From: an uncultured Rhodospirillaceae bacterium
Lineage (GTDB): Bacteria; Pseudomonadota; Alphaproteobacteria; UBA828
Assembly (NCBI GenBank): GCA_963997635.1
Contig: CAXEND010000001.1
Span: 80,005 to 144,004 of the forward strand
Reading direction: 5' to 3'
DNA length: 64,000 bases
Below are positions 35,677-51,957 of this stretch, piece after piece. The notes beneath the pieces are model-generated. The model worked only from the letters and a program-made list of their open reading frames with translations. It did not search any database and was not told the origin of the DNA. Within the stretch, counting starts at the first letter, position 1, and every line of letters begins with the position of its first letter. A program made the position numbers and the translations under genes.

Positions 35677-36503
35677 TTTTTTTTTATTTTTTTTCAATTT
35701 TTATTTTATTCTACACACTCGGAATTAGCGAAGTTCTTGCAGGCAGGAATATTAAGCTTGCAACAACAACCTCTACAGAAAACTCAGGACTGCTAAAAAG
35801 ACTGTTGCCTGTTTTTGAAAATCGTAAGGATATTAAGGTATTAGTCATTGCTGTTGGTACAGGTCAAGCTCTAAAAATAGGAAAAGATGGGGATGCTGAT
35901 GTTCTGCTTGTGCACGACTCTGTTGCAGAGAAAGAATTCATGCAGAAGGGCTTTGGAATTTCTCGTAGAGAGGTTATGTCTAATGACTTCATTATTGTTG
36001 GTCCCCAAGGTGATCCTGCAAGGATAAAGGGAGGGCGTGACGCAGTAAAAGCATTTAAGAAAATTTATTCTAATTCTATTAAGTTTGTCTCACGTGGTGA
36101 TGATAGTGGTACACACAAAGCAGAGAAAAGACTATGGGAAACTGCAAGCAATATTTTACCATGGAATGTAACTTCAACAAGTTGGTATAATGAAGTAGGT
36201 GCTGGTATGGGCCAGACGTTAAATATAGCAATAGGAATGGGAGCTTATACTATTGTTGACAGAGGTACTTGGCTTGCTTTTAAAAATAAGAGGGAACATA
36301 TAATTATGGTTGAAGATAAAGAAACTCTTCACAACCCATACAGCGTGATTTTAATAAATCCAAATATACACCCACACACTAAATCCGAAGATGCAAAACA
36401 GTTTTATGATTGGGTGATTGGTGAAGAAGCACAGGAAATTATTTCTGAATACCGGATTGACGGAGAAAGGCTATTCTTGCCAAATATTGATATTTATAAA
36501 TGA
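35664..36503 (+). CDS. tupA: Tungstate-binding periplasmic protein
   Basis: Strong match to the TupA signature block (LATTTSTENSGLL...VIAVGTGQALKIGKDGDADVLLVHD...FIIVGPQGDPARIKG) after a signal peptide. Confidence 0.75.
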   Translation: MCRIVFFYFFSIFILFYTLGISEVLAGRNIKLATTTSTENSGLLKRLLPVFENRKDIKVLVIAVGTGQALKIGKDGDADVLLVHDSVAEKEFMQKGFGISRREVMSNDFIIVGPQGDPARIKGGRDAVKAFKKIYSNSIKFVSRGDDSGTHKAEKRLWETASNILPWNVTSTSWYNEVGAGMGQTLNIAIGMGAYTIVDRGTWLAFKNKREHIIMVEDKETLHNPYSVILINPNIHPHTKSEDAKQFYDWVIGEEAQEIISEYRIDGERLFLPNIDIYK

Positions 36504-48566: not shown

Positions 48567-50108
48567 TTAAAATTTGCGGCGTATTTCAAAGCGTGCTCCG
48601 GAAATGTTTTGCTCCTCTGTTCTCCATCCGTGCATTGCATCAGCTCTAAATAACCAAGCTTCATTGATATTTTGCTGGTAGCGTAAACCCAAGGCATATT
48701 CATCTCCGCGAAGGCTCCTACCTACCTCATTTTCTCCTTCAATGACTTGGTTTGTAGCTGCTTCAATGACGATTTGACGATCTAAATTGAAGAGATAACT
48801 AACTCCTATAGCTCCACCAAATGCATTCTGTCCGGTATCATTGAGTTTAGGAAATCCTGTTAACCCATCTGTTTCAAAGTTAATACCAGTATTCTTTAAT
48901 AATCCATCTGCTCTAGCTGCTGATTGAGGCCTGTCAATGCCTACAAAAAAGTTACCATAAGGGACCAGTGTTGAGGGTAGACTTGTAATCAGGGAGTTCT
49001 CAACTAATAAAATTAAACCATCAGCCGTATCTTGCAAGTTATTGTCTCTATCTTGTCCAAAAGACCATATTGCTCTTATGCTATTAGAAAGCAATGCTCC
49101 GTATCTTTTTGTATATGCAATTGTAGCACTATTATATGACTCGTCGTCGAATCCACCTTCTCCATCTAATCTAGCAAAACCAGCTTCCCAGTATGCTTCC
49201 ATAGCTTCTACAAATGTAGCTACTCCAAAGATATTGACGTTATGATCAGCATTTGCATTTTGATCATCTTTGAAAGCTTGATTTGTAACTTTGTCAAAGC
49301 CATAGAAAAAAGATATATCCATATTGGTTATGTCCAATAATGGACTGTTGAGTGAGGGAATAGCAGTTGCTACACCTGTGAAAGCATCCTCAATCCATAT
49401 CCCATTTTGGAATAAGAGTGGCATAAGGCCTAATGAAAAGGGAACGTCAAGACTGGAGTATTCACCGCTAAAGCCAGCGTAAAGTGCACCTGCATCTCCT
49501 TCAAAAAATAGTGCATCTAAATTTCCATCGATTTGTGCATCACATTTCTTATTGGGGTCATTATTTGGTGCATCGTCACCAAAAAACTCGCAACGGCTAA
49601 ACTCACCTTGTCCATCAAGTGGCCTTAAAATAGCATGGATTCTCTCAGTTCCAGTGAATTTATAATCAATATCTAAATTAAGCCTAGTAGCAACCTGTCC
49701 TACCTCAACATTTCCATTGTCATTAAAAGCCAGTGCACTACGCCAATCTCCATAAACATATAGCTCTGTGAAAGTAGGGTTCAACTCTCCAAGAGCATCA
49801 CCTCCTTCAACTAATGGTCCACCAGAATAAAGAGGATTTCCAATCTCTAATAGAGGTCTTGTGACAGGATAGGCTGATTTGCCACCATAAATTTGAAGTT
49901 GGGCTTCAATATCATACTCTTCTTCTGGGTAACTTGGATCAGCTCTAAATACACCTGCGTCATGTTCGACAATTTTTGAGCGTGTATCTTTTTTGATCTC
50001 GGCACCATTGGCAAGATTTTGTTCTGCAGCAAATGAAAATGTTAAACTTGCGGCAATACAAAATGGCAATAAATGGTATCCAGGAAAGTTTTGAATGATT
50101 TTTTTCAC
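48567..50108 (-). CDS. Putative outer-membrane beta-barrel protein (porin-like)
   Basis: Signal peptide; C-terminal Phe (…ARFEIRRKF); alternating hydrophobic beta-strand pattern. Sits between multiheme cytochrome genes and an oxidoreductase, 7 nt downstream of the pentaheme gene. Confidence 0.5.
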   Translation of the reverse strand: MKKIIQNFPGYHLLPFCIAASLTFSFAAEQNLANGAEIKKDTRSKIVEHDAGVFRADPSYPEEEYDIEAQLQIYGGKSAYPVTRPLLEIGNPLYSGGPLVEGGDALGELNPTFTELYVYGDWRSALAFNDNGNVEVGQVATRLNLDIDYKFTGTERIHAILRPLDGQGEFSRCEFFGDDAPNNDPNKKCDAQIDGNLDALFFEGDAGALYAGFSGEYSSLDVPFSLGLMPLLFQNGIWIEDAFTGVATAIPSLNSPLLDITNMDISFFYGFDKVTNQAFKDDQNANADHNVNIFGVATFVEAMEAYWEAGFARLDGEGGFDDESYNSATIAYTKRYGALLSNSIRAIWSFGQDRDNNLQDTADGLILLVENSLITSLPSTLVPYGNFFVGIDRPQSAARADGLLKNTGINFETDGLTGFPKLNDTGQNAFGGAIGVSYLFNLDRQIVIEAATNQVIEGENEVGRSLRGDEYALGLRYQQNINEAWLFRADAMHGWRTEEQNISGARFEIRRKF

Positions 50109-50115
50109 GGCTCTT

Positions 50116-51957
50116 CTATCCTTTTACTTCAAATTCAACCGTGTAGGCGTCAATGTCTAGCATCCATTCGTTCATTGCACGCTCCATTTCTTTTGTGGCG
50201 CCAACAAACCTCATGAAATAGATTGGCTCAGCTCTACTTCTCATCCTGATAGCCAATTTATATGTGCCTGGTTGTTTTATGAGCTTTCCTGGAACTGAGT
50301 AATCAGCATCACGGCTAGATAATGGGGGAAGACTTCGCCCCTCCATTCGAACAAAGGGTGGGTGATTTATAACGGTTGTAGGCTGTGATGCTGGCCGTAG
50401 GAATGGAAGCTGGTCTACATCAAAGTTTACCGGCAAATACATCTCACGATCTGTCCCTTTTACGTTTGTAGTTAAGAATTTAGTCTGTAAATTAACTAAT
50501 TGGTCATCATATGGGACCTTTCCAGATAAAACGTCTGCACTATGAAGGTCTGCCATATCTCCTGCAGAGTCGGTATATCCAGATTCCCAAATATTTGTTC
50601 CATCAGGTCCTATCAGTGCAACATTAACCCAGAGTTCTGGCTGAGCACCAAGAGAGCCTGAAGGTAGATTATGTCCCGAATTAGTGTTTGAAATTGTGTA
50701 AGTGAAGTCGAGATCATGGCCAATTTGAGGGTTGTCATCAAAGAATGGCCCATCGATGTGGGAACCATTTTCCATGACTTGTCTCCTCAATTCGCGTTTT
50801 TCTTCTATAAGCCCAATGTTATAGTTTATAATTTCCCTAGCTTCTTCCCTGTCAAAACGATCTTCCCAGACTTCTGGAAATTCTATTTCTTCTATTTCTC
50901 CAGAATCAACTAATTCTTCATAATTATCTTCCCAATCTTCTTCTCCCCATGGAGCTCGATAGTTAAACTGAAGCCATTCTTCCATGGTCCAGTTTTCAGC
51001 GTCTGGGTTATGAGGGAAAATACCAGGGTGTGCAATAGGGTATCCTGGACCTGCAAAGGCATGACTATGTCTAATCCTGTCAGGATTTACAGCACGCCCA
51101 TCTACAACCGCAGCTGGACCAGTTTTGAAATGACCTGCAACCCCAGGTTTGTAACTCATATGGCAGTCTTGACATGACACACCTTGAGCATGGGCAGGCG
51201 AATCACGATACTGATCCCAAACTACTTCAAGCTTAATTCCTAAATTAACAGCAACCTGATGACATGAAACGCAAAATTCTGATTGATTGAGCTGTGTAAA
51301 AATTTTGCCTTCATTATGAATTTGATTTCCGCGCTCATCAGAATTAGTGGCAACTTTCCAAGTGCTAGCATTCTCGACCACTTCTTTAATCCCATCGCCT
51401 CCTAAGACGCCGTATACAGGTTCAAATATTTCCCCCATCACAATATTTCTGGAACCATTTGCTTTTCCATATGCTGTATTTACGCGGTGGCAGGTAATAC
51501 AAGTAATACCTTCCCGGCTAACTTGTTTACGTTCCCACATAGGGAGTTCCCTAGCTTCGCCCATTTGTGTGCTTACTGTTGCATGGCAGCGAACACAGAA
51601 TGTATTTATTGTGGGAGCAAGTGAGTTAATTGCATTTTCAAATTTATGAAACATTGGAGAAAGTGAGGCGTAGGCATGGTTTGATGAAGCCCATTCTCTG
51701 TAGATATCCTCATGGCATGATTTACATTTTGATGCACTGGGAAATAAATCTTCATTCAAAATATCTGTGTGCATTTTATCGGCATCAATTGTTTCATTGT
51801 CACTTGCTTCTAAATCTCCAGAAACTGATGAGAATGCAAATAGTCCAATGAGACATAAAAAGACTGAAATTTTAGTTAAGGTTTTTTTCATCATAATTGT
51901 AGTTTTCTCATGATCAGAGAAAATACTGTTTTTAAATAATATACTTAACTTAGTCAT
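50116..51957 (-). CDS. Secreted pentaheme cytochrome c with large heme-free acidic C-terminal domain
   Basis: Five CxxCH motifs (CKSCH, CVRCH, CITCH, CVSCH, CQDCH) within the first ~265 residues, then ~350 residues with none. Alternative start at 51894 (MMKKTL..., classic signal peptide) would remove the 8-nt overlap with the decaheme gene. Confidence 0.8.
   Translation of the reverse strand: MTKLSILFKNSIFSDHEKTTIMMKKTLTKISVFLCLIGLFAFSSVSGDLEASDNETIDADKMHTDILNEDLFPSASKCKSCHEDIYREWASSNHAYASLSPMFHKFENAINSLAPTINTFCVRCHATVSTQMGEARELPMWERKQVSREGITCITCHRVNTAYGKANGSRNIVMGEIFEPVYGVLGGDGIKEVVENASTWKVATNSDERGNQIHNEGKIFTQLNQSEFCVSCHQVAVNLGIKLEVVWDQYRDSPAHAQGVSCQDCHMSYKPGVAGHFKTGPAAVVDGRAVNPDRIRHSHAFAGPGYPIAHPGIFPHNPDAENWTMEEWLQFNYRAPWGEEDWEDNYEELVDSGEIEEIEFPEVWEDRFDREEAREIINYNIGLIEEKRELRRQVMENGSHIDGPFFDDNPQIGHDLDFTYTISNTNSGHNLPSGSLGAQPELWVNVALIGPDGTNIWESGYTDSAGDMADLHSADVLSGKVPYDDQLVNLQTKFLTTNVKGTDREMYLPVNFDVDQLPFLRPASQPTTVINHPPFVRMEGRSLPPLSSRDADYSVPGKLIKQPGTYKLAIRMRSRAEPIYFMRFVGATKEMERAMNEWMLDIDAYTVEFEVKG

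Follow-up and report, generated by a model that had tools for sequence, protein, structure and literature searches.

The 64,000-nt stretch of DNA analyzed here (herein the window; all positions are window positions) lies on contig CAXEND010000001.1 of an uncultured Rhodospirillaceae bacterium and carries ptdA, the gene for a five-haem cytochrome known from marine and soil bacteria, within a ptdABCDEFG cluster. We propose that PtdA may be a periplasmic catalytic oxidoreductase, acting as a reductase, that is served by the PtdB channel and driven in this genome by NAD(P)H via PtdC, PtdE, PtdF, PtdG, and PtdD; we put the probability of this reading at about 0.45. Three results move the working hypothesis from an extracellular electron conduit to a channel-fed periplasmic enzyme. 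PtdA has the active-site scaffold of the newly solved enzyme MccSep without the MccSep catalytic residues, the partner barrel models as a substrate-type channel rather than a cytochrome sheath, and the A-B pair is the conserved unit. In the largest oceanic oxygen-deficient zone (ODZ), nitric-oxide transformation is dominated by Alphaproteobacteria in which ptdA and ptdB rank among the most strongly transcribed genes. The ptd system is abundant and widespread, its transcription is high in oxygen-deficient waters, and its link to MccSep opens it to experiment; the results also single out specific residues and cultured hosts for finding the PtdA substrate.

Identity and Boundaries of PtdA

The ptdABCDEFG cluster was named in 2023 by Elbon, Stewart, and Glass from the marine ODZ Alphaproteobacteria UBA11136. 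They describe PtdB as a porin, PtdC as a flavin adenine dinucleotide (FAD)/NAD(P) oxidoreductase, PtdD as a tetrahaem protein, PtdE as a cyclic nucleotide monophosphate (cNMP)-binding protein with 4Fe-4S clusters, PtdF as a ferric-reductase-like membrane protein, and PtdG as a decahaem protein. They call the function “completely unknown” and offer extracellular electron transfer and nitrogen cycling as possible roles (bioRxiv 10.1101/2023.11.21.568154). We reached this preprint by a literature search from PDB entry 5ZE8, the sole solved sequence relative of PtdA; a search for another name or a characterized function of the ptd system found nothing besides it. The open reading frame at 50116 through 51957 is the PtdA of this cluster, as all seven ptd genes are present with five (A), four (D), and ten (G) CxxCH motifs, as published. 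The existence and architecture of the PtdA family were published before, and it is not new as an object; the preprint gives no barrel size and no MccSep link. Relative to the published system, the order here is D-E-F-G-A-B-C, and the host is of Rhodospirillaceae type, from oxic Tara surface and deep chlorophyll maximum (DCM) water rather than an ODZ. The features of ptdA are as follows.

50116 through 51957, minus strand: ptdA open reading frame, 613 aa as called, stop codon included
51817 through 51894, minus strand: probable true start M22 and Sec signal peptide MMKKTLTKISVFLCLIGLFAFSSVSG, no lipobox (sequence and N-terminal orthologue alignment)
51058 through 51816, minus strand: five-haem domain, residues 48 through 300, with the Pfam Cytochrome_C554 module over haems 1 through 3 (domain searches and alignments)
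51712 through 51726, minus strand: haem 1 motif C78KSCH82 (motif scan)
51583 through 51597, minus strand: haem 2 motif C121VRCH125 (motif scan), aligned with MccSep catalytic haem 2 and, by published work, corresponding to the catalytic N-terminal-module haem of c554 and MccA (PMC13510729; PMC9250108)
51487 through 51501, minus strand: haem 3 motif C153ITCH157 (motif scan)
51259 through 51273, minus strand: haem 4 motif C229VSCH233 (motif scan), followed by the invariant G240-I-K-L-E-V-V-W-x-Q-Y-R251
51160 through 51174, minus strand: haem 5 motif C262QDCH266 (motif scan)
50764 through 51057, minus strand: residues 301 through 398, the C-terminal ~100 residues of lineage-specific insertion 1 (alignment and model)
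50833 through 51000, minus strand: Glu/Asp/Trp-rich segment, residues 320 through 375 (composition)
50119 through 50763, minus strand: immunoglobulin-like (Ig-like) β-sandwich, residues 399 through 613, homologous to the stem of T. tepidum cytochrome c552 and MccSep (model and profile)
50653 through 50676, minus strand: loop G428-H-N-L-P-S-G-S435 (profile alignment; invariant in 120 orthologues)
50323 through 50508, minus strand: lineage-specific insertion 2, residues 484 through 545 (conservation 0.90; predicted local distance difference test [pLDDT] ~30)

Initiation at M22 (51894) or M23 (51891) gives a canonical Sec signal peptide with cleavage before DLEAS, and the 21 residues ahead of M22 are unconserved even against an 89%-identical relative. 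A start at M22 or M23 is therefore more plausible than the called one, in line with the alternative at 51894 that the initial annotation had flagged. That annotation had also raised an undetected frameshift; a frameshift or split gene can be ruled out from the colinearity of PtdA with its orthologues and from the five CxxCH motifs present in 119 of the 120 sequences (the window protein and 119 relatives) in the alignment used for invariance and motif counts. More than 3,400 database proteins match PtdA, and the best 120 are 58 to 89% identical; among these, relatives of at least 560 residues are colinear with PtdA along its length, and more than 100 orthologues of 577 to 613 aa are colinear end to end. 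An identical 613-aa sequence is already public on a Tara Oceans station 032 DCM scaffold, and the named member of its 90%-identity cluster is annotated “cytochrome C [Rhodospirillaceae bacterium]”. As first described, ptdA lies directly upstream of the outer-membrane barrel gene: its stop codon occupies 50116 through 50118 and the GTG start of ptdB is at 50108, leaving 7 nt between them.

A Five-Haem Cap and an Ig-like Stem

PtdA has exactly five CxxCH motifs and no CxxCK; its only other cysteine, C35, is in the signal peptide, and a non-haem cysteine in the mature protein occurs in 2 of 120 orthologues. All five motifs fall before residue 267, matching the N-terminal ~265 residues to which they had been assigned, and residues 267 through 613 (347 aa) are free of haem motifs. 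Eight non-motif histidines are conserved (H63, H94, H104, H214, H299, H310, H429, and H532). Residues 77 through 157, which hold haems 1 through 3, match PF13435 (45.7 bits; threshold 20.8), as does the N-terminal module of c554 and MccA, from which PtdA differs in having five haems instead of four or eight, an Ig-like domain, and no MccA-type Cu-binding Cys pair. In c554, MccA, and OTR, the catalytic or five-coordinate haem lies within the N-terminal module (PMC9250108). Pfam and NCBIfam searches with the whole of PtdA returned haem-domain matches only, with no family for residues ~290 through 613. The earlier view that the protein resembles neither NrfA nor octahaem HAO holds. The NrfA cytochrome c nitrite reductase was rejected because there is no CxxCK and no match to an NrfA model in either database (a local match to 1oah is marginal, at 14 bits), and HAO and related octahaem cytochromes were rejected with five haem motifs instead of eight and no HAO family match.

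PtdA belongs to a cap-and-stem pentahaem family, with its C-terminal half as the Ig-like stem, an assignment based on matches to the low-potential cytochrome c552 of Thermochromatium tepidum (5ZE8) and MccSep (9WT8) and on the model of residues 399 through 613. A profile made from an alignment that includes distant PtdA-like proteins (A2) matches 5ZE8 across both domains (E = 1.1e-21) and also MccSep (E = 1.8e-5); hhalign comparison of PtdA with an alignment of the MccSep family gives a probability of 98.4% over the haem domain. Like c552, PtdA combines a five-haem α-helical cap and an Ig-like stem in one chain. The two are 14% identical; 5ZE8 is shorter (435 aa), lacks both PtdA insertions, has Ala at the position of PtdA Ser435, and has a Cys in the linker between haems 4 and 5 where PtdA has none. 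In an AlphaFold2 model of PtdA (built with 46 orthologues, without haems; mean pLDDT 68), the helical region is confident, including the helix of residues 367 through 398, as is the β-sandwich of residues 399 through 613 save for residues 493 through 540 (pLDDT ~30).

The two domains form a fixed unit, since the haem module nearly always accompanies the C-terminal half. When residues 320 through 613 alone were searched against 1.84 billion representative proteins, only 238 matches were found at E ≤0.001. Of the listed matches with at least 400 residues, nearly all share the five-haem module and its motif spacing; in the few exceptions, CxxCH motifs are fewer or absent, and these proteins may be truncated.

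The MccSep Active-Site Scaffold without Its Catalytic Residues

MccSep (ExtKL) of Geobacter sulfurreducens, the only relative of PtdA with a characterized function, is a polysulfide reductase and, by experiment, a soluble periplasmic enzyme; its neighboring porin, ExtI, is reported as a selenite-uptake channel. As in PtdA, five conserved CxxCH motifs form a cap above an Ig-like stem that has a GHxxPxG loop, and an outer-membrane porin gene adjoins each (ExtI and PtdB). Four MccSep haems (1, 3, 4, and 5) have bis-His ligation; haem 2 has His and Cys239 as its ligands. The Ig-like domain extends a loop with the catalytic selenocysteine U325 to haem 2, and this loop and haem 2 together make the active site (PMC13510729).

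In the hidden Markov model alignment, with MccSep numbering checked against the numbers in the MccSep paper, G428-H-N-L-P-S-G-S435 of PtdA falls on G318-H-S-I-P-D-G-U325 of MccSep. H429 and S435 are invariant in the 120 orthologues; Ser435 stands at the position of the catalytic selenocysteine, and PtdA has neither selenocysteine nor Cys directly after GHxxPxG. The MccSep hexapeptide PTQC(239)CT, which carries the Cys ligand, is an insertion relative to PtdA, which at this segment has the invariant G-I-K242-L-E244-V-V-W-x-Q-Y250-R251. PtdA retains the interdomain loop, and a conserved basic and acidic segment occupies the expected site of the haem 2 distal pocket. Because both the Cys ligand and the selenocysteine or Cys are absent, the selenium and sulfur chemistry of MccSep cannot apply to PtdA, and the chemistry of PtdA is predicted to differ, its haems having no Cys ligand and its loop no selenocysteine or Cys. 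Membership of MccSep/ExtKL itself was rejected on the absence of these two features and on a score of 38.5 bits against the cut-off of 250 for NCBIfam NF040886 (ExtKL). A search for full-length MccSep homologues found only fragments ending just before the UGA (selenocysteine) codon, many of them N-terminally incomplete, so the stem beyond the selenocysteine can be compared solely through the PDB match.

Conservation and Insertions of the C-Terminal Half

Conservation, measured as mean identity to the window PtdA residue among 46 orthologues, rises from 0.63 in the haem domain and 0.67 in insertion 1 to 0.77 in the β domain, 0.88 in the loop (residues 424 through 447), and 0.90 in residues 484 through 545. 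The higher values of the β domain, loop, and insertion 2 appear enzyme-like, and the β domain, being better conserved than the haem domain, is no uninformative linker.

Insertion 1, which is missing from 5ZE8 and MccSep, separates haem 5 from the stem; it starts near residue 276 and is ~110 residues long. Its part in residues 301 through 398 holds AHPGIFPHN, the end of a His-rich motif that begins just upstream, in the part listed as haem domain (H299AFAGPGYPI), followed by acidic Trp-rich helices and the long helix of residues 367 through 398. The Glu/Asp/Trp-rich segment noticed at the outset is present, at residues 320 through 375 (22 of 56 residues are D or E, 39%; 5 Trp; isoelectric point [pI] 4.05). 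It is not a separate module; it forms part of the confidently modelled helical insertion. A disordered low-complexity linker was rejected for this stretch, with pLDDT of 88 to 96 over residues 330 through 370 and invariant Trp, Arg, Phe, and Pro; the stretch is also conserved in distant PtdA-like proteins. The initial annotation had suggested a catalytic or a substrate- or mineral-binding module. A catalytic role is plausible, given that the Ig loop of MccSep supplies the selenocysteine and the PtdA loop aligns with it, whereas mineral binding finds no support in a protein with a plain signal peptide and no lipobox, a periplasmic homologue in MccSep, and a channel-like partner barrel.

Insertion 2 lies inside the stem and, by residue counting, adds ~45 residues relative to 5ZE8. 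Residues 484 through 545 (50323 through 50508, minus strand) have invariant R504, E505, M506, D513, D515, R521, H532, and R537, and probably fold only against haem or a partner protein. Elsewhere in the stem, residues 459 through 470 (50548 through 50583, minus strand) read S-G-x-x-D-x-x-G-D-x-x-D and resemble a Ca2+-binding loop; the consensus in distant relatives is SGDLDPNGDxRD, and the motif is kept across the wider PtdA-like family.

PtdB and the A-B Pair

48567 through 50108, minus strand: ptdB, outer-membrane β-barrel of ~18 strands with a C-terminal Phe (AlphaFold2 model and synteny)

No Pfam family was found for PtdB. Its AlphaFold2 model (built with 45 orthologues; pLDDT 80.8) has about 18 long strands and a C-terminal Phe. 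The best structural matches are to 18-strand substrate channels, namely C. jejuni MOMP, OprD/Occ, E. coli ChiP, and AlgE (E = 1e-10 to 1e-8; TM-score ≤0.68), and MtrB is not in the top 50. PtdB thus models as a barrel resembling 18-strand substrate-specific channels, not an MtrB-like sheath. The ptd cluster shares with MtrCAB/Pcc conduits an outer-membrane barrel gene beside multihaem cytochrome genes, with a decahaem among them. It differs in the number of barrel strands (~18 against 26 in MtrB), in having no surface lipoprotein cytochrome, in the anchoring of its decahaem, PtdG, in the inner membrane, and in the two-domain structure of PtdA. Membership of the MtrAB type was rejected on the matches of PtdB to OprD/Occ, AlgE, MOMP, and ChiP at ~18 strands and on the missing lipobox of PtdA.

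Synteny was surveyed by tblastn of the seven window proteins against 85 loci. At every locus with enough downstream sequence, ptdB directly follows ptdA, and the pairing also holds at loci without any other ptd gene; the A-B pair, rather than the whole operon, is the conserved unit. One distant PtdA-like protein (P0176; 33% identity) has an A-B-C trio, and the contigs of two others (P0173 and P0218) are too short to show gene context. Ahead of the barrel, PtdB has a segment of ~70 residues (residues 41 through 110; 49779 through 49988, minus strand) with low model confidence and many invariant residues (F54, P58, Y60, Y65, Q70, Y74, G75, K77, P85, Y94, and G97). It could be a plug or a PtdA docking element.

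A Proposed Electron Supply from the Rest of the Cluster

47215 through 48495, minus strand: ptdC, membrane-anchored FAD/NAD(P)H reductase (Hmp-reductase-like) with a C-terminal 2Fe-2S domain (Pfam/NCBIfam)
51950 through 53923, minus strand: ptdG, decahaem with an N-terminal cytoplasmic 8-Cys region and one transmembrane helix (motif scan and sequence)
53920 through 54735, minus strand: ptdF, membrane protein with two invariant His pairs (alignment)
54732 through 56405, minus strand: ptdE, cytoplasmic, with cNMP-binding domains and a 4Fe-4S ferredoxin module (Pfam/NCBIfam)
56583 through 57518, minus strand: ptdD, basic (pI 9.0) tetrahaem c554-like periplasmic cytochrome (Pfam/NCBIfam and motif scan)

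All seven ptd genes lie on one strand of the window in the order D-E-F-G-A-B-C, which is also found in Minwuia and a close relative. PtdC matches the reductase half of Hmp (262 bits), has a Fer2 domain, and, as read from its sequence, an N-terminal hydrophobic helix. PtdE combines cNMP-binding domains with a DmsB/NrfC-like 4Fe-4S (Fer4) module and has no export signal. PtdF has two invariant His pairs, H75/H89 and H248/H262, each 14 residues apart, on two hydrophobic helices, from which we infer that it binds two b haems. Together, the domain contents of PtdC, PtdE, PtdF, PtdG, and PtdD suggest that electrons could reach the periplasm from NAD(P)H without quinones.

At its N terminus (53639 through 53923, minus strand), PtdG has ~95 cytoplasmic residues with cysteines at positions 23, 33, 43, 49, 60, 70, 80, and 87 ahead of the transmembrane helix. 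The spacing of the eight cysteines is kept in Minwuia at 36% overall identity, and the region could be an Fe-S or Zn domain.

A Proposed Channel-Fed Periplasmic Enzyme and Its Alternatives

In the mechanism that we favor, PtdA would be the terminal, probably catalytic, subunit of the Ptd system, a periplasmic protein positioned at the inner mouth of PtdB or close to it, and PtdB would let in a small soluble substrate or let out a product. Catalysis would occur at haem 2, where the haem cap meets the Ig-like domain; the pocket there may be lined by the invariant K242, E244, Y250, R251, H429, and S435 and by the conserved insertion of residues 484 through 545. In this genome, electrons would pass from cytoplasmic NAD(P)H to PtdC (FAD and 2Fe-2S) and PtdE (4Fe-4S and cNMP-binding domains), and PtdF, with two b haems, would move them across the inner membrane to PtdG and PtdD. 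The acidic Trp-rich insertion of PtdA may serve as a docking site for PtdD, the pI values being 9.0 for PtdD and 4.05 for the acidic segment. The most reasonable substrate class would be a small inorganic anion or a nitrogen, sulfur, or metal species. By analogy, a channel-fed enzyme has a precedent in periplasmic MccSep and its porin ExtI.

Several points weigh against this proposal. The eight conserved histidines are more than enough for five bis-His haems, which would leave no open site. The haem cap is ill-defined in the AlphaFold2 model, with pLDDT <50 in the region of haems 2 and 3; this is expected of a model without haems, and it means that the proposed pocket rests on sequence alignment instead of coordinates. 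We infer the direction of electron flow solely from domain types, and the authors who named the cluster favored a role in extracellular electron transfer (bioRxiv 10.1101/2023.11.21.568154). Finally, the NAD(P)H supply chain is not universal, as several genomes (Marinobacter and Ca. Uabimicrobium) have A-B but lack C through G genes in its vicinity.

A bolder form of the channel-fed enzyme, which we consider doubtful, would make PtdA the founder of a new multihaem enzyme class, with an MccSep-like site at haem 2 and the Ig loop, a Cys- and selenocysteine-free catalytic set, and an NAD(P)H-driven export chain acting on a solute that enters by its own channel. The catalytic set would be Lys242, Glu244, Tyr250, Arg251, His429, and Ser435, and surplus conserved histidines (H299, H310, H316, and H532) might hold a non-haem metal as well. 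The export chain, quinone-independent and gated by cyclic nucleotides, would be a split bacterial analogue of NOX/FRE ferric reductases, and the solute would be one of global relevance, e.g., an N-oxide, iodate, a sulfur oxyanion, or a metal chelate.

If PtdAB were instead a porin-cytochrome conduit, PtdA or a part of it would sit in or on PtdB, and electrons would flow to Fe(III), Mn(IV), or other acceptors outside the cell that are insoluble or complexed. The cluster does resemble porin-cytochrome clusters in its barrel, its 19 c-type haems in three cytochromes, and its transmembrane electron route, and the 7-nt spacing and universal pairing of A and B suggest a physical complex. PtdA also has a weak similarity to MtrC/MtrF domains II/IV (Pfam, 31.2 bits against a cut-off of 30), and its best-conserved segment (residues 484 through 545) is modelled as disordered, as an interface that folds on a partner would be. 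However, the ~18 strands of PtdB and its matches to OprD/Occ, AlgE, and MOMP set it apart from 26-strand MtrB, and by barrel geometry the lumen of an 18-strand barrel is too narrow for a haem domain. The cluster encodes no lipoprotein or surface cytochrome, PtdA and PtdD having plain signal peptides and PtdG an inner-membrane anchor, and the homologue MccSep is a soluble periplasmic enzyme. Identity of 55 to 81% across phyla, as seen for PtdA, is typical of enzymes, whereas surface electron-transfer cytochromes diverge fast. On balance, we regard a conduit as unlikely.

Two further possibilities seem to us quite unlikely, and equally so. In one, PtdA would oxidize a reductant entering by PtdB (sulfur species, Fe(II), Mn(II), hydroxylamine, or NO) and hand its electrons to periplasmic cytochromes (PtdD, PtdG, or general c-type) and on to the respiratory chain. 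This would suit the several genomes that have A-B without the NAD(P)H module, where generic periplasmic cytochromes must be the partners, and the sulfur metabolism of the hosts of its relatives: T. tepidum is a purple sulfur bacterium, MccSep acts on polysulfide, and in the ODZ Alphaproteobacteria with strong ptdAB transcription, genes of sulfide and sulfur oxidation are transcribed as well. The N-terminal module resembles c554, a cytochrome of an oxidative pathway (PMC9250108). On the other hand, the partners that recur are NAD(P)H reductases of the FNR type, which have 2Fe-2S domains and occur with two different domain orders; such reductases normally deliver electrons from NAD(P)H, and reduction of NAD(P)+ by most of the proposed donors would be uphill. 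PtdA also lacks the Cys-ligated haem of the thiosulfate- and sulfur-oxidizing TsdA and SoxAX (PMC13510729). In the other, PtdA would be a noncatalytic carrier with five bis-His haems, its Ig-like domain and insertions serving to dock PtdB or cytochromes or to oligomerize, with the chemistry elsewhere. The eight histidines could fill every distal position, T. tepidum c552 has no known catalytic activity, both MccSep catalytic residues are missing from PtdA, the Ig-like fold is generic, and MccSep is a tetramer. Yet the counterpart of the MccSep active-site loop shows no variation in 120 orthologues, nor does GIKLEVVWxQYR, and this invariance exceeds the usual need of a docking surface; moreover, no other candidate catalytic subunit is encoded in the ptd cluster, of which PtdA is the most conserved component.

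Distribution and Genomic Surroundings

PtdA orthologues of 56 to 89% identity occur in at least 565 species genomes (a scan with one genome per species, whose figures are lower bounds). The PtdA-PtdB pair ranges over Alpha-, Beta-, and Gammaproteobacteria, Verrucomicrobiota, and Planctomycetota, and relatives are found in the cultured Marinobacter sp. CHS3-4, Hyphomicrobium sp. 2TAF46, and Kordiimonadales IMCC3096, as well as in Ca. Uabimicrobium. Identity across the surveyed loci is highest for PtdA (55 to 81%), followed by PtdB (40 to 70%), PtdD (23 to 62%), and PtdG (23 to 54%). The layouts comprise D-E-F-G-A-B-C, A-B-C-D-E-F-G, a divergent G-F-D operon beside A-B, and A-B alone. In Hyphomicrobium, an analogous Fer2-FAD-NAD reductase, with a domain order that differs from that of PtdC, accompanies D-, F-, and G-like genes beside A-B. 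In strain 2TAF46 (positions 1746 through 8284 of its locus, L042), the layout has no PtdE; besides the reductase, whose domain order is the reverse of that in PtdC, this divergent operon encodes a c554-like cytochrome, a PtdF-like protein, an 814-aa multihaem protein, and a CcmH-like TPR protein.

A promoter and terminator scan of 45 through 58 kb gave counts at or below shuffle expectation and no operon boundaries. Directly downstream of ptdC and in the same orientation lies a gene for a TolC-family outer-membrane protein (45355 through 47082, minus strand) with a ~120-residue Lys/Thr/Asn/Ser-rich C-terminal extension past the TolC domain; it is syntenic in several marine relatives (loci L002, L006, L008, L009, and L016) and missing from most of the more distant loci examined. 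Just beyond it, two genes past ptdC, is a CHASE2-sensor adenylate/guanylate cyclase (43070 through 45286, plus strand) that adjoins the cluster in close relatives (L002) and not in Minwuia. The nearby cyclase and the cNMP-binding domains of PtdE are hints that cyclic nucleotides control the ptd electron chain. Some 12 kb from the ptd cluster, a DHOR-family di-haem oxidoreductase, a putative peroxidase, is encoded at 36500 through 37849 (plus strand), adjoining a BipA GTPase gene and near a ModABC-like transporter (39955 through 42649).

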